The notes beneath the pieces were generated by a model. The model was not told the origin of the DNA. It searched no databases and saw nothing but the letters and a program-made list of their open reading frames with translations. Position numbers and translations under genes: made by a program. A stretch of 64,000 nucleotides of DNA from Candidatus Cloacimonadales bacterium (GTDB lineage Bacteria; Cloacimonadota; Cloacimonadia; Cloacimonadales; JAIOQZ01): assembly GCA_963662655.2 (NCBI GenBank), contig CAXXTU010000002.1, positions 1,696,001 through 1,760,000 of the forward strand, read 5' to 3'. Below are positions 10,398 through 62,628 of this stretch, one piece after another. Within the stretch, counting starts at the first letter, position 1. The number at the start of each line of letters is the position of its first letter.

Positions 10398-10526
10398 TCG
10401 TTGCATCTTCGCCCGTTTCGCTCTCCAGCGTGTATATAACACGTTTGCGTTTTCAAAGGTAAAAGATAAATCACTCCAACGTGTAACAACACGCCTGCGA
10501 GCGAAATCAAACGAATCTGCTGCCGA
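10398..10526. repeat. Dispersed structured hairpin element, copy 1
   Basis: GCATCTTCGCCCG...TATATAACAC...AACAACAC...AAACGAATCTGC; stems TTTCGCTC/GAGCGAAA and ACACGTT/AACGTGT. Confidence 0.85.
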
Positions 10527-10528
10527 TC

Positions 10529-12268
10529 TTACAATTTGGTATCGATACCGAAGTGAATGAAGCCGTTCTGGGGCTCCGTCCACTTACCTTGCGAATAGCT
10601 AAGCGCGTAATCGAGCTGCAACTGCCCGATCGCCGTTTCAACGCGCAATCCCAGCCCGTAGCCGAAAAGATCGTCCAGTCGCTCGACCTCATCCCCATTG
10701 TGGAACTCCACGTAACCGTAATCGACGAACACGAAGAGCCTCGAGAGACGCGAGAGCAATTGCCGGACTTCGAGATTGATCCATCCGAGCCTGTGGCCGT
10801 GGAACTGGTTTTCGCGAAAACCGCGAAGACTCTGGCTTCCTCCCATCTCGAAGCTTTCGTAATCCTCCAGATCGGTCTTTTCCTTCTCCTTCGCGTTGAT
10901 GGACGTCGCGAGCACAAGCCTTTTGTAGAGCTTCTTATAGTGACTCCAGCCAAGCTCGGTTGTATAGTAATCGTGGTATTCCCCTTCGATCTGCTGGAAG
11001 GTGTGGTAGTACCGGATGTTGAAATCGTCCCCGGACGAGGGATTTCGTTCGTAATCGACGTCGTTGTAATTCCAGAAAACGCCGGCCTTGCGGAAGGAGG
11101 TTTTCTCGACAACGGCAGGCCGCATCGAACCAGGGTAGACATCCTCCACGCCGAGGTATATGCCGAATTTCTGGTAGAGCGTGTAGTAATACACCTCCAG
11201 GTCCACCGCCGACTGGATGTAGATCGAATCGACCTCTTGCCGGTAGAAATCGATGTCGGCGGCGATGGGGATATCGCCAAATCCTGATTCATGGTAGCCC
11301 AGCTTCACGTAGCTGCGCGACTTGCTGTAACGCTGCCACTTGAGCGAAAGCGCGCGGTCGGTGCCGAACAGATTGAGAAAATCGAGATTGATGTAGCCTG
11401 TAAACTCGTCGCCGGAGTCGCCAGTATTGTTATAACCCACGATACCCGTGAGGTTGATCATCTTGTCCTCGGTAATGCGGAACAACACGGTTCTGGCGTC
11501 GGTGGGAACGATCTCACACTCGCGAATGTATGACTTCTTGCTCAGATTCTCGGTAATTCGATTGATCGTTGAGAGCGTCAGCAGATCGACCTGCCGGATG
11601 CGTGAAATCCTGAGCAGGGTTTCCTCCGTCGTGACCTTGTTTCCTTCGAACCGGTATTTCTCGGCGTAGCAGCGGGGACCTTCGGAGACACCGAGGTACG
11701 CGTTGTATCCCTCATCGATGTAAACGATGGAATCCAGCCAAGCCTCAGCGAAGAGGAAGCCCATCTCCCCATAGATGCTGGGAATCTGATAAATCGCGGC
11801 GGATAGCTCCTCCAGCGAAACAGGCTGATCCTGGGGCATCCCCGTGAACTCACGCAGCTTGAAATCGGAGAATAGCCGATTTCCCCGGAAGATTACCTCC
11901 CCCGCCTTAACATCGGCGTTCTCGTGGATGGTGAAGAAGACATCAACCCAGCCGGCATCGACGATTTCAATGCGCGGATACTCCACGGTGACGTGGTACT
12001 TACCGTATCGCTGATAATACTCCATGATGTCTTTGCAATCCGCGTTCGCACGATCCTGATCGTACCATTCCTCCACCTCGAGATGAACGACCGAGAGGAG
12101 TTGCCTGTCCGTGAAGAACGCATTGCCCTGGAAACGTATGGAACGCACTCGCAACCTGTTCTCTTGCGCATTCGACGCAAGGGATAGCATCAGAAAAATG
12201 AATACGACGATCCACTTGAGATGGTTGATATTATGGCGCTTCAAGATTGGTTTGGAGCGTTCGCTCAT
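10529..12268 (-). CDS. Omp85/BamA-TamA family outer membrane protein with POTRA domains
   Basis: Three POTRA starts (IRFQGN, IFRGN, RFEGN); GGSQSLRGF; GYGLGLRV; C-terminal IHFGIDTKL. Confidence 0.9.
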   Translation of the reverse strand: MSERSKPILKRHNINHLKWIVVFIFLMLSLASNAQENRLRVRSIRFQGNAFFTDRQLLSVVHLEVEEWYDQDRANADCKDIMEYYQRYGKYHVTVEYPRIEIVDAGWVDVFFTIHENADVKAGEVIFRGNRLFSDFKLREFTGMPQDQPVSLEELSAAIYQIPSIYGEMGFLFAEAWLDSIVYIDEGYNAYLGVSEGPRCYAEKYRFEGNKVTTEETLLRISRIRQVDLLTLSTINRITENLSKKSYIRECEIVPTDARTVLFRITEDKMINLTGIVGYNNTGDSGDEFTGYINLDFLNLFGTDRALSLKWQRYSKSRSYVKLGYHESGFGDIPIAADIDFYRQEVDSIYIQSAVDLEVYYYTLYQKFGIYLGVEDVYPGSMRPAVVEKTSFRKAGVFWNYNDVDYERNPSSGDDFNIRYYHTFQQIEGEYHDYYTTELGWSHYKKLYKRLVLATSINAKEKEKTDLEDYESFEMGGSQSLRGFRENQFHGHRLGWINLEVRQLLSRLSRLFVFVDYGYVEFHNGDEVERLDDLFGYGLGLRVETAIGQLQLDYALSYSQGKWTEPQNGFIHFGIDTKL

Positions 12269-13332: not shown

Positions 13333-13333
13333 C

Positions 13334-15174: not shown

Positions 15175-15176
15175 GC

Positions 15177-26661: not shown

Positions 26662-28155
26662 GAGAGATAACCCCAAATCGGGAGCGAGCGTCCGTTCTGC
26701 CAAAGGGGTGTCATTTTATACCCCCAATTTTTCATACGAACCTGACCTTGAGCTGTAAATGCTCTTTCCACCTTCCTTTATCGGGCTTTATCCAGTACCA
26801 GTCAAACCATCGGAAACACTCCGAAATGACGTAGGTTAACCTGTAGTAAATGAAGTAACCTCGGCGCTTCCAGTCACTTTTCCGTTCGATAAACGCCGAC
26901 ATCATAATCGATTGTAATCCGGGCACATCCGTAATCATCGAGTAAAGAAAACATACAGCGAGCCAGAAGATCGCATTCAGATTTTTCAGCCTGTGGTACT
27001 GCAAAAGGCGAATTTGCTCCCATCCGAAATCTTGCTTGAGTTGCCGGTGCATTTCTTCGACTTTCCATCTCGCACGGTAACTTGTGAGGGTGAACTCGAC
27101 GATCTTTCTTGCGTCCCAGTCACGTCCCGGAAAGTCGCACAAACAGTAAAAGAAACCGCCCTCTTCTCCATCGTGGTATCGCGCGACTACAAGCCACCCT
27201 TCCACCGTCTCCGGATTCTTTACAGGATGAGGATTCAGACGTATCTTGACGCGCTTCAGCCCAGCACGGAAATGATGTCCCGCATTCCAAAAATCCATGG
27301 TCAATTTCACTGACTTGCAGACACGCAGAAAGTCTTTTTCTTCAGCATCCTCGTCTATCAAATTGCGCGTACCTTTACTGCGAATAATGAACGAGTTTCC
27401 ATTGGCGTGGAAATGTCCGATCAACGAACGAATATCGTACCATCGATCCAACACGAAAACGCCACGATTGTTGCTATGGATCGTTATTTCATCGATTTGA
27501 TCACGTGTAACCGTTGAACGGGTATCATGCTCGATTTTGCTACTGTATATCTTGCTGCAAAGCGGAACGATCGAATGATTTGAAGGCGTCCCGACCAGGG
27601 CGACAGCATTGATCAAATGATAGCCTGACTCTGTTTTGTTGGCACTGGCGTCTCGTATCTTTTCCAGGCCTTCCATACGAGTTGCGTAAGGCTTGACGAT
27701 ATCGCTTTCGTCGATAAAGATCAGGCTGTCTCGTTCGAGCCGACGACTTTGCGAAGCTAACAGAATATCATGGATATCCGATGCTAAATCTTCTTGATCG
27801 AGATGTCGGTATAAGCGTCCACTGGTCTTGCGTAATGGGATTTGTTCATGTAGCGAACGGGCTGCCTGGCGTACGATTACGCTTTGACTGGCGAGAATAC
27901 CTTTCGTCATTTGTTTCAAGAAGTTGAAGCGTGGAACACTGAGTTCCGCCTTGTACTTGCGCATGAAATTGTGAAATTTTCCTTGCATCTGGTGGAACTG
28001 CTGCTTAAGTTGACCTTGCATATTGGCTCCTTTGTTAGTTTTTTGGTCGAAACTATTTTGGCAAAGGAGCCTTTTTTCACAATCTATTTCTTCTCAAATC
28101 CGCTAATAATAACATGTCTCCAGCTTTTGCCTAAATCTTTTTGGGGGTATTCCTG
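26662..28155 (-). mobile_element. IS4-superfamily-like insertion sequence, about 1.49 kb
   Basis: Flanked by the direct repeat GTTTACAAGCTTCCATAG (26644-26661 and 28156-28173). Imperfect terminal IRs: GAGAGATAACCCCAAA versus CAGGAATACCCCCAAA (12/16). Confidence 0.85.
26732..28021 (-). CDS. DDE transposase (IS4-like, YREK motif)
   Basis: IFIDESD, VLDRWYD, YRARWKVEEMHRQLKQ. Confidence 0.9.
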   Translation of the reverse strand: MQGQLKQQFHQMQGKFHNFMRKYKAELSVPRFNFLKQMTKGILASQSVIVRQAARSLHEQIPLRKTSGRLYRHLDQEDLASDIHDILLASQSRRLERDSLIFIDESDIVKPYATRMEGLEKIRDASANKTESGYHLINAVALVGTPSNHSIVPLCSKIYSSKIEHDTRSTVTRDQIDEITIHSNNRGVFVLDRWYDIRSLIGHFHANGNSFIIRSKGTRNLIDEDAEEKDFLRVCKSVKLTMDFWNAGHHFRAGLKRVKIRLNPHPVKNPETVEGWLVVARYHDGEEGGFFYCLCDFPGRDWDARKIVEFTLTSYRARWKVEEMHRQLKQDFGWEQIRLLQYHRLKNLNAIFWLAVCFLYSMITDVPGLQSIMMSAFIERKSDWKRRGYFIYYRLTYVISECFRWFDWYWIKPDKGRWKEHLQLKVRFV

Positions 28156-28189: not shown

Positions 28190-28318
28190 GGCGTGAGCAA
28201 ATTCGTTCGATCCATTTACCGCGTGGTGTTTCACGGTGGAAGATTTCTTCTAACTACTCTCATTTACGGAACCGTGGTATATCCACGGGGTAAATGGATC
28301 GGGCGAAGATGCCACGCC
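28190..28318. repeat. Dispersed structured hairpin element, copy 3
   Basis: GGCGTG-A-GCAAATTCGTTCGATCCATTTACC...GGTAAATGGATCGGGCGAAGATGC-CACGCC. Confidence 0.9.
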
Positions 28319-28340: not shown

Positions 28341-31300
28341 TTACTTCTTCCTCGTATTCTTGCGGGATGTATCCGCTTTTCGCTGAGGCTGAACGCTCTC
28401 GGTTTGCACTTCAACCCGGTTCACTTCTTCCATTATCCCATGATTCACGCTTGTCATTACTGGGAGCGCCCATCGCACTTCATCTGTAGATGCGACAACA
28501 TGGAAATACTGCCTGCTCTGTGTTACAGGAAGATCCCAAGCTGTTCCGGCAATGATCGCCGCTGGACTGCCCCAATCTCCCACATAAGGATCGGATGAGG
28601 TGAATATCTTGTACGAACTCGCGCCCGGAACGGCATTCCAGGTCAGATGGAAAGCGCCTTCGGAATACTCGATCGCCAGATTCTGCGGAGCAGCCAAAGC
28701 ACCGCTTTGCCACGGATCGAATAGCACGGCTCCGTAACTTCCATTGTTCTCATCATCAAAAATATGCGAATCGATCGTCAGTGAATCCGGGTAGTCCCAC
28801 ACATTGTAAAACGCGTTGATGTCGTATGCGCTATAGTTTGCCACCTGCCACACGCCGCCATCGTTATCGTGGATATGGTTGTTGCCAATATCCTCGACGT
28901 TCTGATTGCCCAGATTCGGCTGGCAATTACCCTGAATCAGTACGCCATACGATTGATTGTACCGGACAATGGAGTTCCTCACCATAGGATTGGAGTTGTT
29001 GATATCCACCCCGTACTGAGCGCTATACTCGATCAGACATCCATCCAGCATGCACGCGCCGGTATCGATTAATTGAATCCCGCTGTCGATTCCGTTTGTG
29101 TTACCTGCATAACATACATATAGATTCTCCATCGATGCTTCGCCGATCAATGCCCCGCTTCCACTGACACGGATACCGTACCAGTCTCCCACCGATGGCG
29201 AGCTTGCCGTTCCATCCGAGTTCGTGTCCCCATAGATGGAGTCGTCCTTCAGCGATGTCATCACAACCGGCTCAATAGCCGTTCCGGCCACATTCAAGGT
29301 TCCAGTAACATACAAATACCCATCGGCGCTGTTTTTAAAAACGCTGCCAGGCTCGATATTCAAGACACCTGTATCCAATACATTCAACGCATTCCCAGGG
29401 ATAAACGGAAATCCATCCTCCGAATCGATCGTTACATCGCTATCGACATTACATCGTAGAAACATTCCGTTGATCTGGTTGCCGGATCCGGTATTCCCGT
29501 TCATACTTTGCAAGATACCCTCGATGTACCTCAAGCCATATTCACCGTTGTCGATGAAGCTATTATTCTGAATCACGGGCGCTGATGTAGAACCGTAGAT
29601 CAATATTCCGGAAAACGCGTTCCCCTCGAACGTCGATTCCGTAAATTCGGGAGAGCTGCTCTCGATCCTGATGCCCTCTCGCTGGCTGAATGACGACTCG
29701 CTATTGCTGAATCTGCACGATTCATCCGCGCTCAGGAACTTAAGGTTTGCATCGATGCTATTGCTGTTTCCCCCGTAAAGAATCCGGCAGTGATCGAATT
29801 GCCCGATTCCTTCATTGGTTCCCGTGCCGTTGATCTGGATTCCGTACCAGTCACCGCCGGCAGGCTCGGACGCGTCCAGATCGTGGTTGGTGTCTCCGCC
29901 GATCTCATCGTCCTTGATCGAGGTGATGTATATTTCATTTCCGTAATTTCCAGAAGCAATCAAGCTTCCCTGCACGTTAAGGAGCGACGATGGCTGTCCC
30001 TTCACTCGGACACCCGGTAGGAACTCCAGACTTGCCCCAGATTGCACGAAAACTGTCCCAGATAGAATGAATGGAAACGTTGAAGAACCGCATTCCCAAA
30101 CAGCGTTCCCGGAAACGGTTCCCCGTACGCCGAAACCGTTATAACCGTTGTCGCTCCCCGCGTTGCCGCTGTAGGAACTAATGATCGTGTCCTCCAGGAG
30201 CACTCCGTACGAACCGTTCGATGTAAACACGTTGTTATTGATTACAGGATTGGAAGTCGTTGTCTGACCATAAATTCCATTCAGAACGTTATGGCTGAAC
30301 ACTGAGTTCACGATTTCCGGACTCGAGTACTGAATATGAATCCCGTGCTGAGCGCTGTATTCGCAAAGACTGTTCGAGAACCACGAGCTCTCCGCCTCAT
30401 AGAAACGCAGGCTTGCATCCAGGCCATTCAAATTGCCGCCATAGGCGAATATGCAGTTGTCGAACTGGCCGACTCCGTCGTTATCGCTAGAGCCGTAAAT
30501 ATAAATGGCATCCCAGTCTCCCGGTACTGCATCCCCGTTATCGCCATCGGTATCACCCGATCGTGCATCGTCTTTTATCGAAGTGAACACGACCGGTGAC
30601 TCACTCGTCCCGTTCGCGTCCAGCGTCCCGAAAACGGTCATTCTTCGTTGCCAGCCTGATTTGATCGTCGTTCCGGCAGAAAGCGTCAATACGACATCGT
30701 CATTGACCGTGATCGCTTCGTACATGATGAATGGAAAATTCGGGTCCGTGTTATGCGACCATACCGCGTCCGCTGTGACCGTTCCGCCCAGTCCGAACCC
30801 GTTGTAAACATTCCCGCTGCCGGAATTATCCGAATACGAACACAATGTGCATCCGCTCAGATATACGCCGAAAAACCCGTTATCATTGAACGTGCAGGCG
30901 TCGATTGTAGGCATGGAGGCAGCGCTGTTGGCGTAGATACCACTGCTCAAGTTGTTGTTGAACTGTGAACCGGAGATTTCCACGCTGCAATTGTATATGC
31001 GAATTCCGTAAACGTGGCTGAAGTTGCACTCGCTGTTACGGAACCACCCGTGCGAGTTATTGAAATAAAGGTTTGCATCGAAATTCGAAGTGTCTCCGCC
31101 ATAGCGAATACTCACATGATCGTACTTGCCCCAACTGTCGTTGGTGTGCCGGATACCATGCCAGTCACCCGGTTGAGGCGTCGTGCTCGTCGAATCGCTG
31201 TTGGTATCTCCGCCGATGCTATCGTCTTTGAGGGAGGTAAACACAATCTGATCGCGCGCGGTGCTTTCCGCATTCATGGTACCTTCGATGTAGACCGCGC

Positions 31301-34300
31301 TTCCGCCCACTGCCTTGAAGACCGTCCCCGGGACAATGGTAAGCGTATCGCCGGAGTAAACGGTTATCGCACCGGTAATAATGTACGGGAAAGACGGAGC
31401 GGCTCCCGACCATGTGACGACATCGTCGGTAACGCCGTTGATACCGAAGCCGTTGTAACCGTTACCCGATCCGGTATTGCCTTCATACGAGTTGAGCAGG
31501 ATATTGTACAGATGTGCCCCGTAACCGACGTTGCCGTAAAACGTATTGTTGTTGATCGTCGCCAGCGTTGCCGTCCCGGTTCCCTTGATCCCATTTTCGA
31601 GATTGTCGGCAAGAACGCAATTGTGTATCTGCGCCGAGGAGTTGTAGAGGTAAATCCCATCTCTGGCACTTTTCTCGAAAGTGCAATTGGTGATCATCGA
31701 GCCGAAATCCGCATGAAGATAGAGGTTGGCATCGCTTGTTCCGGCCGAATTCCCGCCGTACCGGAAGATACAGTTTTCAAGCACAGCAAATCCATCGCTT
31801 TCGCTCCCCACGATCCAATAGCCAAACCAGTCGCCAGGCTGGGCGGGATCCGTGGAATCGTTCGTATCACCGCCGTATTCATCGTCTCGGAAGCTGGTGA
31901 ACACGATCGGATGCAGCGAATCCGCCACTGCGTTCAGGCACCCATTGATGTAGTGCTCCACGCCACTCGACTTCACAATGGAGCCTGGAGCCAGATCGAG
32001 CGTCATGCCCAGAGGAACCGTGACCGAGGCCGGATGAACAAACGGGAAATCCGCTGCGCCGGAAGCCCAGTACGACGACTCTCCCAGCGTTCCGTTCAGC
32101 GCGAAACCGTTGTAACGGTTACCCGTACCGCGATTGCCCGTGTATGAAATCAGCCGACAGCTGTTGAGGTAAATGCCGTAGCTTCCGTTATTGTCGCAAA
32201 CATTGTCTGTCAGGTGCGTAACCGTTGTCGTTCCGCTTGAATAAATGCCATTTAAGCTGTTGTTCGAGCACACGTTGTTTTCCAGCCACGTCACGTTCCC
32301 GAGATTATGAATTCCGTTCGATGAGCTGAATTCGATGATTGAATTCCGTACATAGCAGGAATCGCTGTTGGAAAATTTCAGATTGGCATCGGCAGTTCCG
32401 GCTGTGTTCCCGCCATAACGCACATAACACCACTCGTACCGTCCAATTCCCTGATTGTTGCTGGAACCGTCATGCAACACCCCATACCAGTTTCCCGCTG
32501 CCGGGGATGTCGTAGCGTTATCCGTATCCCCGGAAAACGTATCGTCGTATATCGAGGTGAATACAATCGGGTCCTCTTCCGTTGCGATCGCGTTAATTTC
32601 CCCGTACACAGACATCTGTCTAGAATCCTTGAACTTGAGCGTCGTGCCTGGGGAGATGTTCAGTACACTGTCCGCTTGCACGGTAATATTGGCATCAGCA
32701 ACATAAGGGAAGCTCGGGTGCGATTGCGTCCAGACTGAACCGTTCGCCACAATACCGCTTATACCGACACCATCGATGCCGTTGCCCGATCCGCTGTATC
32801 CCTCGAGAGAGTGCAGTAGAACATTGTTGAACAAAGCTCCATGCTGTCCGTTGTCATAGAACTCGCAACCGTAAACGTAAGGGTTTGTGTTGGTTCCGCT
32901 CAAGTATACACCGTTCAACAGGTTGCCACGGAAGACGCTGTTTTGTATATTGACGTCGCAACCAACTCCCCTGATACCTTGCGTAGAGCTGTATTCGATC
33001 CAGCCGTCGTTGAAATGGAAATCATCGCAGTAAAAAAGGTAAATATTCGCGTCCGGAATGCCACTGCTGTTACCGCCGTATCGGATCCGGCAGTAGTCGA
33101 AATGACCAATCCCCTGATTTTCGTTAACGCCATATACATAGATGCCTTGCCAATCTCCGGTTGAGGGATCGACTCGTGCCCCGTCCGTGTTACCGCCAAA
33201 GCTGTCGTCCCGGATGGACGTTATCACGACCGGTGAAACGGAGGTTCCATTGGCGTCCAGCGTGCCATAGCAAGTGAGAGAAGAATTCATTTCCGCTTTT
33301 ATAATGGTTCCCATCAGGAGCGTAAGACTTGCCCCCTGCTGGACCGTGTTGGAAGCATTTAAAATGAATGGAAACGACGCCTGCGGGTGCGACCACTCGA
33401 CATCGCCGAAGATATTGCCATACACGGCGAAACCGTTGTATTGATTACCGGTTCCCGTGTTACCGCTGTAATCCATCAAGTGGCAGCCATTCATGAATGC
33501 GGCATAGTTCTGATTATCGGTAAATGTACAGTTGGTTACGACAGGCTCGCTGTCGCTTCCGGTCACGTACAACCCGTTGTGGAGATTCCCGGTGAAATGG
33601 CTGTTCGTGATGATCGGAGCGCATTGGTTGGCTCTCAATCCCCGCATCGCGCTGTACTCGATGTGGCTGTTGTTGAAAATAGCGCTTGGGGAACTGCTGA
33701 AATAGAGGGCGCAGTCATAGGACGAACTCGTGTTTCCTGCATAACGGATTCTGCAATAATCGAATTCCCCGTTTCCGGGGGAGTCAACCGAACTATATGC
33801 ACATTGAATTCCCATCCAATCTCCGTGAGAGGGGCTTGTTGCGTCCTCGTTGTTGTTTGTGTCGCCGCCGTACGTATCGTCATGAATCGATGTGATGACG
33901 ACCGGCCGAGCGGAGGTTCCGTTGACATCGATACTCGAATAGATATTGAAGTTAGCGCCTCCGAGTCCCTTGATGACGGTTCCTTCATGTATCGTTAAGG
34001 GCTGCCCCTCAGAGAATATCAGGCCGCCATTGACGACAAACGGGAAATCTTCGTTGTCTTGAAGATGGCTCGCGCTGAACCCACCGGTCAGAACAATGCC
34101 GTTGATTCCGTTGTTGTCGCCGGAGTTCTGGATAACGGAATTGTATCCGATCTGGCTTCCCGTTGTTATATAAGCCGCATAGCTTCCGTTGTTCTCGAAA
34201 GTGTTGTCAATAACCGTGACAACCGCGTTCTGGTTGATGTAAAGTCCATACTGTCCGTTATCGGAAAACGAACAATGCTGAATATCGGGAGAGCACTGAT

Positions 34301-34796
34301 AGGTCTGCAAACCGTGGTTCTGACTGAGACCAATGGTGCAGTAGTAGAATGTACACCAGTCCCCCGCAACCCGGATGTTGGAATCGTAAACGCTCAGGGT
34401 GTTTCCTCCGTAGCGCACAATCGCATAGTTCATCGTGCAGGTACCGTCGATATTGATGCCATACCAGTCACCCGGCTGGGGATCGCCGCTCGAATCGCCG
34501 ATACTCTGGCCAACGGAGTCGTCGTTCTTCGAGGTTATGTAAACGGGACTCATGGACGTTCCCTGTGCGACAATGTCTCCGTAGCAATTCAAAACGGTGC
34601 TGCCGTTGAACTTGACAACCGCCCCGGCAGCAATGGTCAGCGTTGAGCCCTCGTTGACTGTCGCGTTGGATGTAACATACCACGTGTTACCGCCCGTAAG
34701 CGTCATTCCTGAAATATCGCCCGAAAGAACGCTGTATGATAATAGCGCACCGGGCAATAGCAAAGCAAGGAAAAGAATCATCGGAATTATCTTCAT
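28341..34796 (-). CDS. Large secreted parallel beta-helix repeat protein (putative surface protein/adhesin)
   Basis: Signal peptide; nine modules of about 220 aa with VFTSxxDDxxGGDTN...GDWxGI; N-G-rich coils; FN3-like C-terminal segment. Confidence 0.85.
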   Translation of the reverse strand: MKIIPMILFLALLLPGALLSYSVLSGDISGMTLTGGNTWYVTSNATVNEGSTLTIAAGAVVKFNGSTVLNCYGDIVAQGTSMSPVYITSKNDDSVGQSIGDSSGDPQPGDWYGINIDGTCTMNYAIVRYGGNTLSVYDSNIRVAGDWCTFYYCTIGLSQNHGLQTYQCSPDIQHCSFSDNGQYGLYINQNAVVTVIDNTFENNGSYAAYITTGSQIGYNSVIQNSGDNNGINGIVLTGGFSASHLQDNEDFPFVVNGGLIFSEGQPLTIHEGTVIKGLGGANFNIYSSIDVNGTSARPVVITSIHDDTYGGDTNNNEDATSPSHGDWMGIQCAYSSVDSPGNGEFDYCRIRYAGNTSSSYDCALYFSSSPSAIFNNSHIEYSAMRGLRANQCAPIITNSHFTGNLHNGLYVTGSDSEPVVTNCTFTDNQNYAAFMNGCHLMDYSGNTGTGNQYNGFAVYGNIFGDVEWSHPQASFPFILNASNTVQQGASLTLLMGTIIKAEMNSSLTCYGTLDANGTSVSPVVITSIRDDSFGGNTDGARVDPSTGDWQGIYVYGVNENQGIGHFDYCRIRYGGNSSGIPDANIYLFYCDDFHFNDGWIEYSSTQGIRGVGCDVNIQNSVFRGNLLNGVYLSGTNTNPYVYGCEFYDNGQHGALFNNVLLHSLEGYSGSGNGIDGVGISGIVANGSVWTQSHPSFPYVADANITVQADSVLNISPGTTLKFKDSRQMSVYGEINAIATEEDPIVFTSIYDDTFSGDTDNATTSPAAGNWYGVLHDGSSNNQGIGRYEWCYVRYGGNTAGTADANLKFSNSDSCYVRNSIIEFSSSNGIHNLGNVTWLENNVCSNNSLNGIYSSGTTTVTHLTDNVCDNNGSYGIYLNSCRLISYTGNRGTGNRYNGFALNGTLGESSYWASGAADFPFVHPASVTVPLGMTLDLAPGSIVKSSGVEHYINGCLNAVADSLHPIVFTSFRDDEYGGDTNDSTDPAQPGDWFGYWIVGSESDGFAVLENCIFRYGGNSAGTSDANLYLHADFGSMITNCTFEKSARDGIYLYNSSAQIHNCVLADNLENGIKGTGTATLATINNNTFYGNVGYGAHLYNILLNSYEGNTGSGNGYNGFGINGVTDDVVTWSGAAPSFPYIITGAITVYSGDTLTIVPGTVFKAVGGSAVYIEGTMNAESTARDQIVFTSLKDDSIGGDTNSDSTSTTPQPGDWHGIRHTNDSWGKYDHVSIRYGGDTSNFDANLYFNNSHGWFRNSECNFSHVYGIRIYNCSVEISGSQFNNNLSSGIYANSAASMPTIDACTFNDNGFFGVYLSGCTLCSYSDNSGSGNVYNGFGLGGTVTADAVWSHNTDPNFPFIMYEAITVNDDVVLTLSAGTTIKSGWQRRMTVFGTLDANGTSESPVVFTSIKDDARSGDTDGDNGDAVPGDWDAIYIYGSSDNDGVGQFDNCIFAYGGNLNGLDASLRFYEAESSWFSNSLCEYSAQHGIHIQYSSPEIVNSVFSHNVLNGIYGQTTTSNPVINNNVFTSNGSYGVLLEDTIISSYSGNAGSDNGYNGFGVRGTVSGNAVWECGSSTFPFILSGTVFVQSGASLEFLPGVRVKGQPSSLLNVQGSLIASGNYGNEIYITSIKDDEIGGDTNHDLDASEPAGGDWYGIQINGTGTNEGIGQFDHCRILYGGNSNSIDANLKFLSADESCRFSNSESSFSQREGIRIESSSPEFTESTFEGNAFSGILIYGSTSAPVIQNNSFIDNGEYGLRYIEGILQSMNGNTGSGNQINGMFLRCNVDSDVTIDSEDGFPFIPGNALNVLDTGVLNIEPGSVFKNSADGYLYVTGTLNVAGTAIEPVVMTSLKDDSIYGDTNSDGTASSPSVGDWYGIRVSGSGALIGEASMENLYVCYAGNTNGIDSGIQLIDTGACMLDGCLIEYSAQYGVDINNSNPMVRNSIVRYNQSYGVLIQGNCQPNLGNQNVEDIGNNHIHDNDGGVWQVANYSAYDINAFYNVWDYPDSLTIDSHIFDDENNGSYGAVLFDPWQSGALAAPQNLAIEYSEGAFHLTWNAVPGASSYKIFTSSDPYVGDWGSPAAIIAGTAWDLPVTQSRQYFHVVASTDEVRWALPVMTSVNHGIMEEVNRVEVQTESVQPQRKADTSRKNTRKK

Positions 34797-37413: not shown

Positions 37414-37498
37414 ATCCGATGCACCTTCGCCCGATCGCACCACTCCGTCGTGGATATAACACGCCTGCGCGCCGGATCGAACGAATCTGCTATCGGAT
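37414..37498. repeat. Dispersed structured hairpin element, copy 2 (short, inner stem missing)
   Basis: ATCCGAT-GCACCTTCGCCCGATC...GATATAACAC...GATCGAACGAATCTGC-T-ATCGGAT. Confidence 0.85.
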
Positions 37499-37633: not shown

Positions 37634-38056
37634 ATGTCAGAAAAGAAAGCAGTCGAATTCGATCCCAATCTTCATCCGCATCTGGTGTATCTATATCGCG
37701 ACCGCGGGTACACGCAGAAGAAGATCGCTGAAGCTCTTGAGATCAGTGTTGGGCAATTGATGAGCTGGATCAGGATGTATCCTCGGGTCAAGCAGGCTTA
37801 TCAGATTGTTCCGGAGAAAATGGACATCGTCATCGAGGAAGCGCTCAAGAAGATGATGGATGGCTACGAGAAGAAAGAAACCATCGAGACGTACAAGACG
37901 AACAAGGAGGGTCAGGAGGAGCTTGTGGAGCGCAAGGTCACGACAAAGCACGTCGATGGTAACCCAACTGCGCTGAAGATATGGGTGGAACGCTTCCTCA
38001 AGGACAACGACGAGGACTTCGGCGAGGACTACGAAGAGGCGGAGTTTTCCGAGTGA
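37634..38056 (+). CDS. Putative terminase small subunit (N-terminal HTH)
   Basis: HTH GYTQKKIAEALEISVGQLMSW; GYEKKE...VTTKHV..NPTALKIW pattern; GTGA overlap with terL. Confidence 0.7.
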   Translation: MSEKKAVEFDPNLHPHLVYLYRDRGYTQKKIAEALEISVGQLMSWIRMYPRVKQAYQIVPEKMDIVIEEALKKMMDGYEKKETIETYKTNKEGQEELVERKVTTKHVDGNPTALKIWVERFLKDNDEDFGEDYEEAEFSE

Positions 38057-39288
38057 ACCTGAGGCTCCGGCGCAAGGATTTCCTCCCCCACCAGTGGGAA
38101 TTCCTGACCAGCGAGAATCCGATCAAGGCGCTGGTTTCCGGATTCGGCGGCGGCAAGACGCATGTGTTCTTGCGGGAAACGCTGTTGAACCACCTCTTCA
38201 TGAGAAACCGCAGGGGAAAATCCAACGGCTGGATTGTGTATCCCACCTACGCATTGGCAGAAGAGCTGTTCTGCGAACCATTCCAGGAGCTGCTTCGCAA
38301 GTACCGTATCCGCTTTGATTATAAGGCAACTCGACTTCGCTTCGAGAGCAAGTACGGCGTGATCCGCGTCTACCAATTGCAAACACCTGCGCGCATGGTG
38401 GGGAGCGAACTGACCTACATCGGTTTCGACGAGTTCGACATCGGTAGCTACAAGAATTGCGAAATCGCCTATCAGAAGGCGATCGGGCGACTCAGAGGCT
38501 GCGAGAACGCCAGGCTGTACATTGTAACAACGCCGGAAGGCTTCCATTATACCTACAAACTCTTCAAAGAGGAAGGGGCGGCCAAACATCTCATACAAGC
38601 AAAGACAACTGATAATCCCCACCTTCCGGCGAGTTACATCCACTACCTGAGAAGCCAGTACGACGAGAACCTCCTCAGGCGCTACATGAACGGGGAGTTC
38701 GTCAACCTGAACACCGCGCAGGCGTACTACAACTTCGAGCGTGAGCGGCACGTGAAAGAGGTCGAATGCACGTACGCGCCGGAATACTACGTCGGCATGG
38801 ATTTCAACATCGACCCGATGACGGCGGTGGTCGGCGTGTTCCGCGACGACAGGTATGAGGTATTGAACGAGTTCTGGCTCAAGAACAGCAACACCGAACG
38901 CATGTGCAAGGTTATATCGCAGGACTTTGATCCGAACCGGATCGTCGTGTACCCGGACATGACGGGCATCAAGCGTTCCACCAGCGCCGCGGTGGGACTC
39001 ACGGACATCAAGATTCTCAAATCGAACGGATTCCGCGTCAAAGCGACACGCAACCCGCTGGTGAGAGACCGCATCAACGCGGTCAACAACGCGCTCGCGA
39101 AAGGCAAGCTCCTGATCCATCCGCGATGCAGGCACCTCATCCGCGACCTCGAGCAGGTCAGTCGCGACAAGCACGGCGAGCTGGACAAGTCCAGCCCCGA
39201 TTTGACCCACATATCCGACGCGATGGGATATGCGGTCTGGAACCTGTTTCCCATCGTCAGTCAACCCGACTGGCGGACATCAGCATAA
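38053..39288 (+). CDS. Phage terminase large subunit
   Basis: Q-motif LPHQ, Walker A GFGGGKT, Walker B IGFDE, motif III TTPEG; nuclease GMDFN...HISDAMGY. Confidence 0.92.
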   Translation: MNLRLRRKDFLPHQWEFLTSENPIKALVSGFGGGKTHVFLRETLLNHLFMRNRRGKSNGWIVYPTYALAEELFCEPFQELLRKYRIRFDYKATRLRFESKYGVIRVYQLQTPARMVGSELTYIGFDEFDIGSYKNCEIAYQKAIGRLRGCENARLYIVTTPEGFHYTYKLFKEEGAAKHLIQAKTTDNPHLPASYIHYLRSQYDENLLRRYMNGEFVNLNTAQAYYNFERERHVKEVECTYAPEYYVGMDFNIDPMTAVVGVFRDDRYEVLNEFWLKNSNTERMCKVISQDFDPNRIVVYPDMTGIKRSTSAAVGLTDIKILKSNGFRVKATRNPLVRDRINAVNNALAKGKLLIHPRCRHLIRDLEQVSRDKHGELDKSSPDLTHISDAMGYAVWNLFPIVSQPDWRTSA

Positions 39289-39306
39289 CAAAAAGGAGAG
39301 GCATGA

Positions 39307-40683
39307 ATGGAAACGATGATCAGAAACATGCAACAGGCTTCGCGCTGGAACGAAGACATCCAGCGCAGGCTGCGCACGAGAAAGTACCTGGATTATTACC
39401 GCAACCGGTGCAAGGAATACATCGCGGAGCGGATCGACAGCATGGTCGATGGCGAAGAGGCGAAGGAGCTCAAGAAGTACATCGAGCACGACAACATCAC
39501 CGAGCGTTTCGTCGATGAGATCAGCCTGGTCTTCGCCGAGAAGGTGAAAATCACCGCGAGGCGAAGAAAGCCGGACGGCTCGCTCGTCGAAGACGCGGAA
39601 GCCCAGAAGGAGATCGAGCGGCTGCTGCGGCAGACCCGGTTCCAGGTCACAATGAAAGAGGTTGAACGCCTCACCAAGCTCATCTTCGACGTCGCCGTAC
39701 TGCCGCAGGTTCGCGACGGCAAGGTAGAGCTGGATATCATTACCGGGGACAAGGCGTTCGTAATCCAGCAGATCAAGAACACGGTCAAGGCCGAGCAGTT
39801 CTATTATCAGGTCGGACTCAGGGAAAATACCGCGCTCGCGGAACGCGTAGATATCTTCCACTTCTGGACGGCTGATGGACGCAAATACCAGTGCGAGATC
39901 ATGGCCAACGGTCAGCCGGACCCGCAGAGCGTCACCCATCTCAACCACATTGCGTATCCGAACATGCCGGTCGTCATGTTCCGCAACTATCTCCCCATCG
40001 ATACCTTCTGGTTCGACGGCGAAAACGCCATCGTTGAGAAGAATATCGCCATCGATCTCAAACGCACCGACCTCGCCATGGCCGAGGCCTACAACATACC
40101 GCAGCTCTTCACAACAGGCACGCGCGAGAATCAGGACATGAAAAAGGGCCGCACCTTCAAGATCGATATCCCACGCAACGACATGGGAGAAGCCGTAGGA
40201 GATGCCAAGTATCTCTCTCCCAACGAACCGCTGAAGGAACTGAACGAGATGATTAACAGCCGCATCGAGCAACTCGGGCTTTCAAAGGGTCTCTCCAAAT
40301 CGCTGATAAGCGGGACGACGGTTTCCTCCGGCTACGCGCTTGCGCTGTCGAAATACGAGATCGTCGAGAGAAACCGCAGACAGCGCGACTATTACTACGA
40401 TTCCGTTCTGGAACTGGTCGAAAACATGATCATTACCGCGAATCGGGGACTTGGGTGGGAAATCCCGGAAGACCTGGTTCTCGGAGTCGATTTCGGGGAA
40501 ATCCGCTTCGGCGTTTCGGATCAGGAGAAGGAAGAAATCCGTCAGATGAAGCTTCAAAACGGCACGATCTCGCGCATCGATATCATGCTGGAAGACAATC
40601 CCGAACTGGATCGCGATATGGCGATCGAACAAGCGACACGCATCGATTCCGAAAACCTGCGATTCGCACAGACAGCTTCGTAA
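39307..40683 (+). CDS. Putative phage portal protein (SPP1 gp6-like)
   Basis: 458 aa directly after terL; YLDYY, NITERFVD, PVVMF, SGYAL, GTISR motifs typical of SPP1-type portals. Confidence 0.7.
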   Translation: METMIRNMQQASRWNEDIQRRLRTRKYLDYYRNRCKEYIAERIDSMVDGEEAKELKKYIEHDNITERFVDEISLVFAEKVKITARRRKPDGSLVEDAEAQKEIERLLRQTRFQVTMKEVERLTKLIFDVAVLPQVRDGKVELDIITGDKAFVIQQIKNTVKAEQFYYQVGLRENTALAERVDIFHFWTADGRKYQCEIMANGQPDPQSVTHLNHIAYPNMPVVMFRNYLPIDTFWFDGENAIVEKNIAIDLKRTDLAMAEAYNIPQLFTTGTRENQDMKKGRTFKIDIPRNDMGEAVGDAKYLSPNEPLKELNEMINSRIEQLGLSKGLSKSLISGTTVSSGYALALSKYEIVERNRRQRDYYYDSVLELVENMIITANRGLGWEIPEDLVLGVDFGEIRFGVSDQEKEEIRQMKLQNGTISRIDIMLEDNPELDRDMAIEQATRIDSENLRFAQTAS

Positions 40684-40697: not shown

Positions 40698-41091
40698 GGC
40701 ATGAGCAGATTCGTTCGATCTGCCATGAAGACGGGGTGTTACACGTCTAATTTCGGCTTTCGCATAGCGGAAACGAAATCACGAGCGTTGTGATTTCATG
40801 CAATGAAATCATGTTAGCGGATTTTCGGCTTTCGCATAGCGGAAACGAAATCACGAGCGTTGTGATTTCATGCATTGAAATCATGTTAGCGGATTTTCGG
40901 CTTTCGCATAGCGGAAACGAAATCACGAGCGTTGTGATTTCATGCATTGAAATCATGTTAGCGGATTTTCGGCTTTCGCATAGCGGAAACGAATACTTGA
41001 GCGTAAGCCTTTCGCTACGCGAAAGGCGAAAGCGCATAATTAGACGTGTTATATCCCCTTCTCAGGGTAGATCGGGCGAAGATGCCATGCC
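40698..41091. repeat. Dispersed structured hairpin element, copy 4, with loop expanded by a tandem array
   Basis: GGCATG-A-GCAGATTCGTTCGATC...ACACGTCTAATT [array] AATTAGACGTGT-TATAT...GATCGGGCGAAGATGC-CATGCC. Confidence 0.9.
40751..40993. repeat. 72-bp tandem repeat, 3 full units plus 27 bp
   Basis: Units start at 40751, 40823, 40895 and 40967; one substitution seen (TGCAATG versus TGCATTG). Confidence 0.95.
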
Positions 41092-58033: not shown

Positions 58034-58044
58034 TGGGGTAATTT

Positions 58045-58386: not shown

Positions 58387-58404
58387 AAGAAAAAGTTTTT
58401 TTTG

Positions 58405-58434
58405 ACACCGGACACCTGTCCGGTGTTTTTTTTT
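58405..58434 (+). terminator. Intrinsic terminator
   Basis: ACACCGGACA-CC-TGTCCGGTGT followed by a T tract. Confidence 0.85.
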
Positions 58435-58465
58435 GCTGCAAACTCAAGTCTGCTGGCTAGCTCCT

Positions 58466-58646
58466 GCGGCGGGACGGCGCCCGAAACCATTCATCCAGCG
58501 CACATTCGCAAGAATTGGAGGGTCTGCGGATGCATGGGAATGTGCGCTGGATTTCATAAGGGTTTCGGTAAAAGCATTGGGAAGCTGTTTTTCGCCAACA
58601 GCTTCCCAATGCTTTTGTGCGCGAAGCGCACGCGCCGTCCCGCCGC
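58466..58646. other. Intergenic four-way-junction structured element (candidate ncRNA or ssDNA element)
   Basis: Perfect 15-bp outer stem enclosing three arms of 8+15 bp, 20 bp and 6 bp. Confidence 0.7.
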
Positions 58647-58796
58647 GCGGATGGTGCACAACGCAAGGATTGGGACTCGCTGATTTCTCACCTTGGGGCA
58701 CACCAGGGAGAGTCCGAACAATTTTTATTGACAACGATCTTTAAGTAATCGATAAATCATGTCATAAGGGAAAAAGTAAAAAATGAGGATAAAGAC

Positions 58797-61700
58797 ATGA
58801 GAAAAACGCTTTCATTTTTGACGCTTTTTGCGCTGGTATTGCCCATGCTGGCAATAGCGCTGAACGGAGACCCCAAGAGTTGGGATTCGAATGATTTCAT
58901 CGGCTTCGACCAGATTGGCGACAGCGATTTTGCGGATATCTCGTCAACGTATGCGCGAATCGAGGATGGCAGACTCTACTACCGCATCACGTTTGTGAAT
59001 ATGTCGCAGCGTAGCGATAACCGAATGACGGGCGACAGATTTGCCGACTCCGATGCAAGCTTGTCGCTGATGATAACGGATAACGCCCTGACTCAGGAAC
59101 TCAGTGTTCCGCTGTCGGATATCACGGTAAGAAACGGGCAATATCACTCGGTCAGAACGCCTCAGAACAACATGCTCGAGATCGAAATGCCGTGGAGCGG
59201 ATCAAGCAGCACTGAAACCGTTCGCTTCGATTGCTGCATTGAGCATGACGGCCGGATCGTCGAAAAGTTCACCGATCCATTGACCGATAGCGGTCGAGGT
59301 GGATCGCGCGGAGGCAATGCTGCGTTCGTTCATCACGGTAACCAGGGACTGACCTATACCGAGGTGTTTTACGGACAGTACCCGCAGGAAACCAGCGGAT
59401 TCGACGAGGTGCTGGAAGTCCACCAGGCAACGGGCATACCCGGTAATTTCCACATGTCTGGCACCCTGATGCCTGCCGCCGAATGGCACAATCCGGAGTT
59501 CAACGACTGGCTGGTAAACGGGGTCGAGAACGGCTACTGCGCCATGCTCTCATCTGCATTGGGACAGCACATCATGCCGTTCGTTCAGAATGAGATGAAC
59601 AACTGGGCCGTATCGGTCGAGAGCGATATGGTAGCGTACCGCTACGGATACGAACCGCATGTCGCCTGGGTTCCCGAACGCGTTTGGCTGAACCCGGGAG
59701 AATATCCCGAAGCCGGCGTTATTGACTGGCTTGGCGATAACTGGGTCCAGCATGGCGTCAATGCCGTGATCCTGGACGATAGCCCGCACCTCTGGTCCGG
59801 CGACAACCATAAAATCCACTGGATGAACAACAATCAGGGTATCACCCTCCGCTGCATACCCATCGATAACGAGTTCGTCGGATATATGCATTACGACGCA
59901 GGTAGCGCCATGAACCGCATCAACAGCACCGGCCAGTACGGAATCTGCGTTTACGGTACCGACTGGGAAGTGGCGGCCGAGATGAACGAACATCACGACT
60001 CCTCCTTCCTGGACAACTACGAAAGCGTCCTCTGGTACTGCCACGACAACTACCCTGCAGTCAATATCTGGGCGTTGGATTCCGCCATCAACAACAGCGA
60101 TTTCAACGGAAACGGCATCGACATCACGCCCGGAACGTACGGCCTTTGCGGAGGCGGGGACGGCTATGGCGGAAGCAACAACTCCTGGTACACCAACTGG
60201 GCGGGAACGGGATCGCACTCCGATCAGCACAGCCCACAATGGAACTACGGAACCGTATGGAACAACGCCTACGAAAACATCATGGCGAGCCCGGACAATA
60301 CCCTCTCGCAGCTCGCGTGGTATGTGCTTATGATCAACCTTCACGAAACCGCGTGGCACACAAGTGGAGAAATCGCAGACTGGGAGCACCGCTACTCGGC
60401 ACACATGAAGAACGCTAACGTTTACGCGGAAGCGTCTCGCTGGGCCAATGGGGACTACGAGCATACATCGGCGGCCTATCTCTCCGATATCGACAGAGAC
60501 GGCGTTGACGAGTTGGTGATGCACAACGATAAAATCTTTGCCGTTTTCGAATCGATCGGAGGACGCGCCCAGTGGATGTTCTGCAAAGACGGCAACGGAA
60601 ACGCTACATCCGTGGTCGGATCAGACGTAGCATACTACTCGGAAACGGACGGCGATTACAACGAAGGCTCCAGCAACCACGTCGCGGCTTTCTCGGATGT
60701 ATCGCCCAACTACCAGCACAGCCTGTACGCTTTCGATATTCTTCAGGGAGAAGGCGACCAGTTGATCGTTACTTTCACACATGAAGGAGTCTTCCGTTAT
60801 TGCACCCTCGATACAGGCAACAGTTACATCGATGTGAGCAACACTATCAATACCGGCGACCTCTACACCAAATCCGGCTGGACACCCGATCTGCTGGACA
60901 TTATTTGGTCCGGTAAATCACATATCCAACGCATGTGGGGAGATGACGCCTCCTACGCGGGACGGCGCAACAGCGCTACCGGCGCAACGGCAGCTTACGT
61001 GTTGGGAACCGCCGGCGCTTCGCACAACGGAACGTTTGAGGGCACCCTCGTGATGGGTGATGAAATCAAGGGCAGCGGTACTTTCCGTTACTTCCTTTAC
61101 GCCGGCTATACTTCCGATCCTTACGACGAATACTACACCAAGGTTACCGAGCTGGACAACCTCGCCACCCAGCTTGCTGACGATATCCCGCCGCAGATCG
61201 TGAACAGCGCTGCATATCATGCGGGAAACAATGTACTTCAGATCGTCTTCAACGAAGACGTGAGCCAGGCAACGGCGGAGAACGCAGACAACTACTCACT
61301 CAACGGATTCAGCGGCACGTACGAGGTTAGTGACGTGATGCTCTCCCACAGCCGCAAGGTCACCTTATGGCTCGATGGCACAATCCAGCCCGGAGACTCC
61401 GGCAACGTCATCGTAAGCGGCGTGGAAGACCTCAACGGAAACGTCATTCAGAACGGAGCAAACCAGGCAGCTCTCACATCCATGGTCATGCCCCACCTGG
61501 TTGGCACGATGAATAGCTGGACCCCTTCGAACCTCGACTACGATTTTGAAATCGTGGCAAACGGTCTGTGGAAACTCACGACCACCCTTCCGGCAGGATC
61601 CAATGAGTACAAGGTGATCGAATCCAACGATTGGGACAGTAACGACTGGCCGTCGGAGAACCAGATCATCGAGCTCGACGTCGATACGGAAATTACTTTC

Positions 61701-62375
61701 TGGGCGAACTGCGGGATGATGCCTCAGGTGAAATCGGGTGACGAATACGTTTGCCACAGCCCCAATCCACCGACTGTGGTCGGAGATTTCCTTTCCGAGA
61801 TCGGCGGTACCGACTGGAACCAGGAAACGACACTTACAAGCATGAACGACAACGGAACCGACGGTGACGAAGCTGCCGGAGACGGTCGTTTCAGCCTTCT
61901 GGTGAACATTCCAGGCGGCGATTACGAGTTCAAGGTAGTCCTCAATAACAACTGGGATCAGAACACATCCGGAAATGTAAACCTCCACATACCTTCGGCA
62001 GGATCGGAAGTGCTTTTCGTATACGAGATGTTCCAGAACCTTGTGTTCGTAAATGTTTTCAATGATGTTACGGAAGATCAGGCTGGCGATGTACCGGCGA
62101 TCCCGACAATCCAGTCTGTTTACCCGAATCCATTCAATCCGGACGTGAACATACGTTTCTCGCTTCCACACTCAGCGCATGTGGAAATCGACGTGTACAA
62201 CGTTGTTGGCCAGAAGGTTAAGAAACTCGTCAACGACATGATGGACGCAGGTAAACACAGCATTGTATGGCATGGCGATACCAATGAAGGGAAAACGTCA
62301 TCGTCCGGCGTGTATTTCTTCGTGTTGAAGACAGGCGACCAGAAATATGTGAAACGGGCGGTCATGATAAAATAG
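58797..62375 (+). CDS. Secreted GH57-like alpha-glucan-active enzyme with accessory beta-sandwich domains and FlgD-Ig CTD
   Basis: Signal peptide; HHGNQ, NFHMSGTL, WVPERVW, GTDWE resemble the GH57 conserved regions; VGTMNSW/YEFKV CBM-like repeats; VYPNPFNP CTD. Confidence 0.7.
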   Translation: MRKTLSFLTLFALVLPMLAIALNGDPKSWDSNDFIGFDQIGDSDFADISSTYARIEDGRLYYRITFVNMSQRSDNRMTGDRFADSDASLSLMITDNALTQELSVPLSDITVRNGQYHSVRTPQNNMLEIEMPWSGSSSTETVRFDCCIEHDGRIVEKFTDPLTDSGRGGSRGGNAAFVHHGNQGLTYTEVFYGQYPQETSGFDEVLEVHQATGIPGNFHMSGTLMPAAEWHNPEFNDWLVNGVENGYCAMLSSALGQHIMPFVQNEMNNWAVSVESDMVAYRYGYEPHVAWVPERVWLNPGEYPEAGVIDWLGDNWVQHGVNAVILDDSPHLWSGDNHKIHWMNNNQGITLRCIPIDNEFVGYMHYDAGSAMNRINSTGQYGICVYGTDWEVAAEMNEHHDSSFLDNYESVLWYCHDNYPAVNIWALDSAINNSDFNGNGIDITPGTYGLCGGGDGYGGSNNSWYTNWAGTGSHSDQHSPQWNYGTVWNNAYENIMASPDNTLSQLAWYVLMINLHETAWHTSGEIADWEHRYSAHMKNANVYAEASRWANGDYEHTSAAYLSDIDRDGVDELVMHNDKIFAVFESIGGRAQWMFCKDGNGNATSVVGSDVAYYSETDGDYNEGSSNHVAAFSDVSPNYQHSLYAFDILQGEGDQLIVTFTHEGVFRYCTLDTGNSYIDVSNTINTGDLYTKSGWTPDLLDIIWSGKSHIQRMWGDDASYAGRRNSATGATAAYVLGTAGASHNGTFEGTLVMGDEIKGSGTFRYFLYAGYTSDPYDEYYTKVTELDNLATQLADDIPPQIVNSAAYHAGNNVLQIVFNEDVSQATAENADNYSLNGFSGTYEVSDVMLSHSRKVTLWLDGTIQPGDSGNVIVSGVEDLNGNVIQNGANQAALTSMVMPHLVGTMNSWTPSNLDYDFEIVANGLWKLTTTLPAGSNEYKVIESNDWDSNDWPSENQIIELDVDTEITFWANCGMMPQVKSGDEYVCHSPNPPTVVGDFLSEIGGTDWNQETTLTSMNDNGTDGDEAAGDGRFSLLVNIPGGDYEFKVVLNNNWDQNTSGNVNLHIPSAGSEVLFVYEMFQNLVFVNVFNDVTEDQAGDVPAIPTIQSVYPNPFNPDVNIRFSLPHSAHVEIDVYNVVGQKVKKLVNDMMDAGKHSIVWHGDTNEGKTSSSGVYFFVLKTGDQKYVKRAVMIK

Positions 62376-62503
62376 GAACTGAGTTTGAAAAAGAAGGTTC
62401 GGAGGCGATAATCCGAAACCAGAATATACGGGGGTTGCATCGAGGATTGATCATGCGACCCCCGAAGCTTTGAGAATTGAGAAAATTGATCTTGCAGTAT
62501 GCC

Positions 62504-62628
62504 GCACGGGGCATCTTCGCCCGATCCCCGCTCCGGTGTGTATATACCACATCTTTGAACTATCGAACAAAATAATAAGATGTGGAACAACACACCTCCG
62601 CAGCGATCGAACGAATCTGCTCCCGCGC
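62504..62628. repeat. Dispersed structured hairpin element, copy 5
   Basis: GCATCTTCGCCCGATC...GGTGTG-TATATA-CCACATCTT...AAGATGTGG-AACAA-CACACC...GATCGAACGAATCTGC. Confidence 0.9.

Follow-up and report, generated by a model that had tools for sequence, protein, structure and literature searches.

The window analysed here, a 64,000-nt stretch on contig C2 of a Candidatus Cloacimonadales bacterium, carries five copies of a long imperfect hairpin. They belong to a family of about 140 hairpin repeats in the source genome (G000; 3.81 Mb in two contigs, C1 and C2, 99% complete). Analysis of this genome confirmed that the family is real; it is restricted to one genus among the genomes scored and is apparently undescribed in the literature searched. 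Its conserved feature is the fold of one strand. In most copies this folding strand is the template of the leading strand, and it is mostly antisense to neighbouring genes that run co-directionally; this observation is new. With somewhat more confidence than doubt, we regard the family as a non-autonomous single-stranded DNA (ssDNA) hairpin element, similar to REPIN, ERIC and bcr1 and orphaned of its mobiliser.

A first-pass annotation of the window had described a family of five. Over the whole genome, the union of our scans and of diverged copies inspected by hand gave 140 members. Arm profiles retrieved 128 paired elements and an independent matrix scan 129, and since the matrix scan found 0 paired elements on the reversed main contig, the family is not a product of chance. 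Elements are roughly 125-190 nt long and form a rod of ~45-50 bp. None of the 140 copies overlapped a gene by more than 25 nt (genes were called with our own hexamer-based caller), in agreement with the intergenic position reported for the five. A covariance model built from 25 copies was run on relatives, as had been suggested, and returned more copies in the genus only: the three congeners G001 (a single contig), G002 and G003 had 35, 41 and 62 matches, respectively, with 150 candidates scored per genome and a few matches being opposite-strand duplicates. Elsewhere in the order the model was applied to 147 genomes, at 21 candidates per genome, and had no match, and the element was absent from the five sister-genus and family genomes scored. 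A gapped-pattern search, which catches shorter copies only, matched 4/232 genomes of the phylum, all in the genus. Six of the eight matches in a genome-contig search were from Cloacimonadales, the other two being chance spacings lacking the inner motif, and the viral contigs, metagenome contigs, plasmids and phages searched gave no match. Rfam, where a hit had been expected to remove the novelty, gave 0 matches above the gathering threshold in the window; for eight copies, only sub-threshold matches to miRNA precursors were seen, as any long hairpin would give. No description of the family was found in the main texts of the literature searched; the supplements of PMC3733652, which list families of repetitive extragenic palindromes (REPs) and terminal inverted repeats (TIRs), could be relevant to the novelty.

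Read along the folding strand, the element opens with an outer stem of 6-7 bp, followed by a bulged A, GCA/TGC, a tandem mismatch of purines (GA/GA) and TTCG/CGAA. Further in come two T·G pairs, then CGATC/GATCG and a middle stem that varies; a TGTT/TATAT internal loop separates this stem from the top stem, also variable, and the loop. This is the fold that had been drawn from the five copies, and the stem pairs quoted for them are present in the sequence. Among 127 parsed copies, outer pairs 5 and 6 were Watson-Crick in 91% and 90% (36% and 44% expected), the two positions of the tandem mismatch were purine-purine in 125 and 124, and the two T·G pairs were kept in 111 and 113. The inner motif was near invariant in 114 parsed copies, partly by construction, the parse having left out 13 copies, including those with the motif swapped between arms or deleted. 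Covariation, for which a larger alignment had been proposed as a check, was strong. In the 25-copy alignment both sides changed in 24/42 pairs, and covarying cells numbered 142, against 45.8+/-6.2 in shuffles, which ignore relatedness, and 18-37 in slid controls. To limit relatedness, copies were also paired by loop sequence alone. In the resulting 44 neighbour pairs, 347/1408 scored base pairs differed: 154 by a double Watson-Crick-to-Watson-Crick change, 39 by another double change and 154 by a single change.

The wobbles distinguish the two strands. We counted 108 G·T versus 38 A·C on the folding strand, which was lower in energy in 119/125 copies folded as DNA and in 124/125 folded as RNA. 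Thus the strand-specific fold with conserved non-Watson-Crick positions, as first proposed, stands: fixed G·A and G·T pairs favour one strand. For copies 1, 2, 3 and 5 of the window, DNA-folding z-scores of the consensus strand were -3.4, -9.2, -3.7 and -8.1, with 0/200 shuffles as stable (copy 4 was folded without shuffles). A strand mutation bias does not explain the wobbles, because the folding strand is G-rich in 121/125 copies while lying mostly on the C-rich strand.

We infer that stems are rewritten by arm-to-arm copying in the folded state, which would account for double changes being as common as single ones. In two copies (C2:2292355 and C2:2599694), the left arm has been turned into the complement of the right and the core mismatches are erased. 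Middle stems were near-perfect in 46/114 copies, and a GNA/GNA loop was kept in 48/114. At orthologous sites of G002 and G003 with flanks 81-95% alike (L105/L135, L103/L125 and L109/L123), whole stem segments differ on both arms; in L105/L135 a near-identical inner hairpin is enclosed by a middle stem that has been replaced in both arms. Other orthologous pairs of these genomes are almost unchanged. Since core mismatches usually survive such copying, something appears to select for them. In short subfamilies of G001-G003 and in about a dozen G000 copies, a TGTT/TATAT-type loop has its strands swapped between arms, which would not arise by simple inversion and may point to a tandem or circular intermediate.

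We then considered orientation relative to replication. By GC skew, C2 has its terminus at about 0.8 Mb and its origin at about 2.65-2.77 Mb, and the polarity counts are the same whichever origin position is used. The folding strand was the leading-strand template (that is, lagging-strand sequence) in 99/135 C2 copies and, outside doublets, in 91/119 single C2 copies (p=6e-9). This polarity is no by-product of gene orientation (57% leading in G000), because it holds in convergent and divergent gaps (46/60, p=4e-5) and among sense-oriented tandem copies (13/16). In G001, 32/33 distinct model matches obeyed it (skew sampled at 20 places), as did 91/101 loci fetched from G001-G003 by local skew, overlaps and shared orthologues included. 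In tandem gaps, the folding strand was antisense to its co-directional neighbours in 43/59 cases. The first-pass annotation had judged orientation to be independent of context; it tracks replication and, separately, transcription.

Copies in the minority orientation had the weaker folds (-34.4 kcal/mol in 24 copies vs -39.2 in 57, p=0.002) and accounted for 6/8 short or collapsed copies (p=0.004). Their core motif score was not lower (p=0.28), and no stability difference was seen between sense and antisense copies (28 vs 15, p=0.64). Nearest neighbours shared orientation in 96/124 cases, against 75 expected. A tree was built from the 81 C2 copies of standard length, without longer or shorter ones and those on C1; one of its clades, picked afterwards, had an orientation ratio of 26:1 versus 31:23. 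Elements are spread along both replichores; no dif-like site was found near the terminus.

Concerning placement, convergent gaps held 54/128 elements versus 164/1170 background gaps, and an element was present at 166/849 gene 3′ ends with a gap of at least 150 nt versus 84/1077 5′ ends. The closest pairs of copies share the element and not the flanks; the best pair scores only 0.88 (about 94% alike), and there has therefore been no recent burst. The most similar copies were no more than 50 kb apart in 12/124 cases, against 3.9 expected (p=0.0025). Close doublets were tail-to-tail in 8/8 cases. Two of the doublets, C2 2349460-2349738 and 2468382-2468657, have near-identical members and spacer in inverted orientation, and the doublet seems to have been copied as one unit. 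Direct repeats of 3-5 nt at 49 flank offsets, looked for as target duplications, were not above partner shuffles (best excess 3/127). Syntenic sites compared between G001 and G002/G003 were empty in G001 in 9 directional comparisons (~7 sites) and filled in 5. In G003-to-G002 comparisons 13/14 sites were filled in both genomes, so that copies appear long-lived; one further G003 element site was empty in G002.

Elements of kin genomes often stand in mosaics with other palindromes. Among the loci fetched, synteny with G000 was broken more often at gaps with an element than at other gaps of at least 150 nt in G001 (16/17 vs 24/57, p=2e-4) and in G003 (21/26 vs 21/44, p=0.011), the G002 comparison (10/13 vs 3/8) not being significant. 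Elements mark plastic genome sites. Recombination of element with element as the cause of rearrangement is unsupported: orthologous gene ends in G000 were not clearly enriched for elements (14/58 3′ ends vs 166/849), and in the one inversion examined an element lay at 1/4 junctions. In contigs from one study, joints at elements, a possible trace of excision, have short sides and fit cross-mapping among copies.

No cognate mobiliser was found among the enzymes that had been proposed for a search, namely HUH/RAYT transposases, tyrosine recombinases and reverse transcriptases (RTs). The Y1/RAYT type was rejected, with no gene in G000 and no element beside the loci fetched from kin, although four kin proteins pass the RAYT cut-off. 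IS110 transposases occur only in G002 and are inserted in other palindromes (10/17 loci seen): two IS110 families of that genome (7 and 10 copies; L089-L098) insert into GTAG-type REPs and GTCAT-type palindromes, respectively. RTs are patchy and of unrelated types, and no element was found in five RT loci; within the genus there is none in G001, a broken DRT-like gene in G000, and, among the four RTs classified, group II intron RTs in G002 only. Two genus-shared tyrosine recombinases score as XerC/XerD; in G000 they reach 110-128 bits with the integron-integrase model TIGR02249, whose cut-off is 265. This typing covers the two shared proteins, the other four PF00589 matches of G000 and those of kin lying outside it. 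One element lies 8 nt after xerD in G000, which is not so in kin loci. GIY-YIG and DUF559 nucleases were likewise rejected, no element being present at their loci. Stand-alone DUF559 genes of G001-G003 (L186-L195) have purine/pyrimidine-tract hairpins of their own at 7/8 loci; hairpins of this type are dispersed in kin and absent from G000, which also lacks the gene.

A single HUH-like motif pattern had no match among called G000 proteins of 90-450 aa, and inspection by eye of 55 open reading frames near kin elements and lacking a G000 homologue revealed no shared candidate. Genes between close element pairs are, by eye, ordinary host genes plus a three-gene phage remnant. In genome-wide scans, arms were found only at elements and their remnants and not at the ends of multi-copy insertion sequences (ISs); no arms flanked a transposase among unpaired arms and close pairs. 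As no cognate enzyme gene was found, recognition of the hairpin by a protein is something that we infer.

A mechanism can be proposed from these sequence comparisons. The genus-restricted repeat would spread as a non-autonomous mobile element through the predicted ssDNA fold of one strand, and a trans-acting hairpin nuclease/ligase, most likely of HUH type, would read it by shape. Such an enzyme would need the fixed internal loops (tandem GA, TT/GG and TGTT/TATAT) and elsewhere pairing only. The element would land in single-stranded or hairpin-rich sites near gene 3′ ends, beside other copies and palindromes, and its two arms would be rewritten together while folded. Polarity would result mainly from loss or collapse of copies that fold at forks, those whose folding strand is on the template of the lagging strand. 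The family would now be slow or silent in G000.

Several observations weigh against this orphan-element reading. PF01797 (Y1) has no match in G000, the genome with most copies (the search was positive in 6/14 genomes as a control), and matches 6/7 other family genomes, including three lacking the element; the Y1 loci fetched from kin (15/22) had no element in the surrounding ~1.5 kb. A search of 5 genomes for SbcD, as a candidate nuclease for the presumed purging of hairpins, gave no protein above the family cut-off. The weaker minority copies could be older copies flipped by inversions, for which the same pattern is expected, and overall the tree shows no clustering by orientation (20 changes, against 21 in shuffles). 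The folding strand avoids the lagging-strand template, the reverse of the IS200/IS605 polarity. Compared with the interior, the outer stem and the flanks are poorly conserved and vary by species, an unusual trait in a transposon. Empty sites came only from species too distant (about 75% amino-acid identity to G000) to fix the element ends. The longevity of copies also fits host selection. Tandem GA and G·U pairs are stable in RNA too, and in 10 long-loop modules the second triloop reads CTC on the folding strand.

An RNA element, either a long 3′ untranslated region hairpin or a small RNA setting mRNA stability or processing and kept by host selection, would suit the preference for gene 3′ ends and convergent gaps, the G·U and tandem GA pairs and the greater stability of the folding strand as RNA. 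ERIC, YPAL and bcr1 are transcribed, and ERIC affects mRNA stability, according to excerpts of PMC3184786. We nevertheless hold this reading unlikely, and the new non-coding RNA motif suggested for the window is disfavoured: being antisense in 43/59 tandem gaps, the folding strand would be mostly absent from mRNA, and the replication bias persists where transcription is symmetric (46/60). A U-tract was present in 0/140 copies, no Rfam match exceeded the gathering score, and GNA triloop caps are a DNA motif. These triloops make up 41/76 loops of a second repeat family described below (loose pattern), and C-GAA-G caps a short subfamily of the element. GCGNAGC mini-hairpins are described as extraordinarily stable in DNA, their RNA counterparts much less so (passages of PMC13037366; the RNA figure is for a tetraloop). 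The replication link, the antisense bias and the GNA-type caps lead us to favour DNA over RNA. [quoted passage not shown] Near-complete polarity in G001 (32/33), the spread over both replichores and long retention at orthologous sites with pairing kept argue for such a site. It is quite improbable in our view, as the element is found in one genus only and is absent from the five sister-genus and family genomes scored, copy number and sites vary by species, a quarter of G000 copies face the other way, and nested repeats and doublets look selfish.

A folded-strand site resembling attC, with a tyrosine recombinase shuffling genome segments, had been suggested as well. Only the strand polarity agrees with that suggestion: the element lacks the ends that define attC, and an integron integrase was not found. 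Sites of attC type have R boxes of consensus RYYYAAC/GTTRRRY. Flanks and termini confirm that these are absent, as first noted: the ends of the element are variable and of GGCGTG/CACGCC type. There are no cassette arrays, the shared recombinases are XerC/XerD and far below the integron-integrase cut-off in G000, and neither the orthologous gene ends (14/58 vs 166/849), the inversion junctions (1/4) nor the G002 synteny test (10/13 vs 3/8) supports shuffling, which makes this reading very unlikely. We give hardly any credence to a small retro-element, whose folding strand would be an RNA template copied by an RT into nicked, exposed DNA strands: no RT is common to the genus, the five RT loci contain no element, and there is no target duplication. 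It is conceivable, if improbable, that the orphan-element reading should itself be replaced by a separate class of self-editing hairpin elements. These would be read as folded ssDNA via sheared G·A and G·T motifs and copied with neither a RAYT nor an IS transposase, the work being done by an enzyme as yet undescribed or by the host's proteins for replication and repair; the folding strand would join the nascent lagging strand, the reverse of IS200/IS605, the stems would be rewritten arm-to-arm, and the elements would mark rearrangement hot spots.

The five copies illustrate these properties. They lie at the coordinates first reported and, from copy 1 to copy 5, their strands are -, +, -, +, -; those of copies 1, 4 and 5 had been assigned correctly and those of copies 2 and 3 were swapped. 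Copy 1 (10398..10526, - strand) is located between convergent genes, a PAS/HisKA gene ending at 10384 and a BamA-like gene ending at 10529, and is in the minority orientation, with the folding strand on the lagging-strand template. Copy 2 (28190..28318, + strand), in the majority orientation, is 21 nt from the stop of a gene to which it is antisense. This gene (28341-34796) encodes a 2151-aa beta-helix protein with ~220-aa repeats (660-nt period). At 170 nt from copy 2 there is also an IS4/IS701-like DDE transposase (26732-28021), for which no connection with the family emerged. Copy 3 (37414..37498, - strand, minority orientation) follows an ABC transporter gene by 37 nt and is antisense to this gene. 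Its inner stem and loop are deleted: what had been read as a near-zero loop is loss of the inner stem by deletion between short direct repeats. In G001, a different element subtype follows the orthologue of this transporter gene in the same relative orientation. Copy 4 (40698..41091, + strand, majority orientation) is between convergent genes; its arms span 40705-40752 and 41038-41085. Exactly between copies 3 and 4 sits an isolated remnant of phage packaging functions with three genes (37634-40683; terminase small and large subunits and portal), which no other phage structural genes adjoin. Copy 5 (62504..62628, - strand, minority orientation) is antisense to both of its neighbours, a glycoside-hydrolase gene 128 nt before it and a small co-directional gene 34 nt after it.

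The apex of copy 4 had been taken for a loop of about 280 nt. This 285-nt loop is a nested array of a second repeat family (40751..41037, + strand), with 72-nt tandem units forming small triloop hairpins; three units match and a diverged tail follows. Elsewhere, this family (~72-90 nt, GNA/ANA-triloop hairpins) stands alone as tandem arrays, for example at C2 184465, 863000, 2347013 and 3160083, and it fills the apex of 23 elements (copy 4 and 22 with single units), always on the folding strand. Other repeats were also observed. Among 12 near-identical 1.35-kb insertions, which we take from their protein to be ISL3-like, three lie 13-56 nt from an element (C2 1506270, 1950515 and 3484902). A prophage that looks Mu-type by eye has several copies, 83-99% alike, at C1 11-21 kb and at C2 1-10 kb, 477-510 kb, 2.73-2.76 Mb and 3.29-3.32 Mb. 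A 192-nt tandem array at C2 3677268-3678422 runs off the contig end.

How palindromic repeats lacking an enzyme, such as CGTC REPs, ERIC and bcr1, spread and maintain their fold is an old open question. The present family offers a test case, with ~140 diverged copies in a two-contig genome, three congeners, and fixed non-canonical motifs that can be mutated singly. Should an enzyme exist, it would be a new reader of ssDNA hairpins; should none exist, the repeat family would be kept by host replication and repair; and if this is an ordinary RAYT-type family that lost its enzyme, it would be one more lineage-specific repeat. The orientation of bcr1 is reportedly linked to replication as well.

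By membership tests, the element belongs to none of REP, MITE (miniature inverted-repeat transposable element) or attC. In common with REP, BIME and REPIN, it is an intergenic, high-copy imperfect palindrome that favours convergent gaps and gene 3′ ends, forms inverted doublets, makes no target duplication and has one special strand; in E. coli, a conserved stem mismatch is needed for TnpA-REP binding (excerpts of PMC3116915, PMC3333891, PMC3733652 and PMC6006769). The REP/REPIN-like character first suggested thus stands for the lifestyle, and fails for the RAYT gene and the foot. Whereas elements of the REP/BIME/REPIN type have two short self-contained palindromes, ours is one ~45-50-bp rod. 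It has no GT(A/G)G (GTAG/GTGG) or CGTC foot 5′ of the stem by flank counts in 127 G000 and 98 kin copies, the flanks varying by species, which bears out the absence of a REP foot noted initially. It also has no flanking RAYT; the hairpins that accompany DUF559 and IS200-like genes in kin are their own and unrelated to it. Intrinsic terminators had been discounted, rightly: at least 6 T in the 8 nt after the folding strand were found in 0/140 copies, and the equivalent on the other strand in 6/140. A search in G000 for conserved terminal inverted repeats matching an IS, as expected of a MITE, found none, the termini being variable.

In the excerpts of PMC3184786 and PMC6542083, bcr1 and ERIC/YPAL resemble the element in length (125-170 bp), lineage restriction, copy number (up to about 130) and compensatory changes that keep the fold, and no mobiliser is established for bcr1, ERIC or YPAL. 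According to the same sources, bcr1 differs by its 5-bp direct repeats (TTTAT) and two-stem cruciform-like fold, and ERIC by its TIRs and TA duplications, whereas our element has no duplication and its ends are the variable part. IS200/IS605 members share with it a strand-specific hairpin, replication-linked orientation and no target duplication. In IS608 and ISDra2, however, the active strand favours the lagging-strand template (passages of PMC5027513), and a TnpA flanked by element arms was not found. The attC sites of sedentary chromosomal integrons, as presented in parts of PMC5371416, have the same polarity as the folding strand; unlike them, the element lacks R boxes, arrays and an integron integrase and is dispersed singly over the chromosome. 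In its polarity, the family points away from the IS200/IS605 rule and toward the attC pattern.

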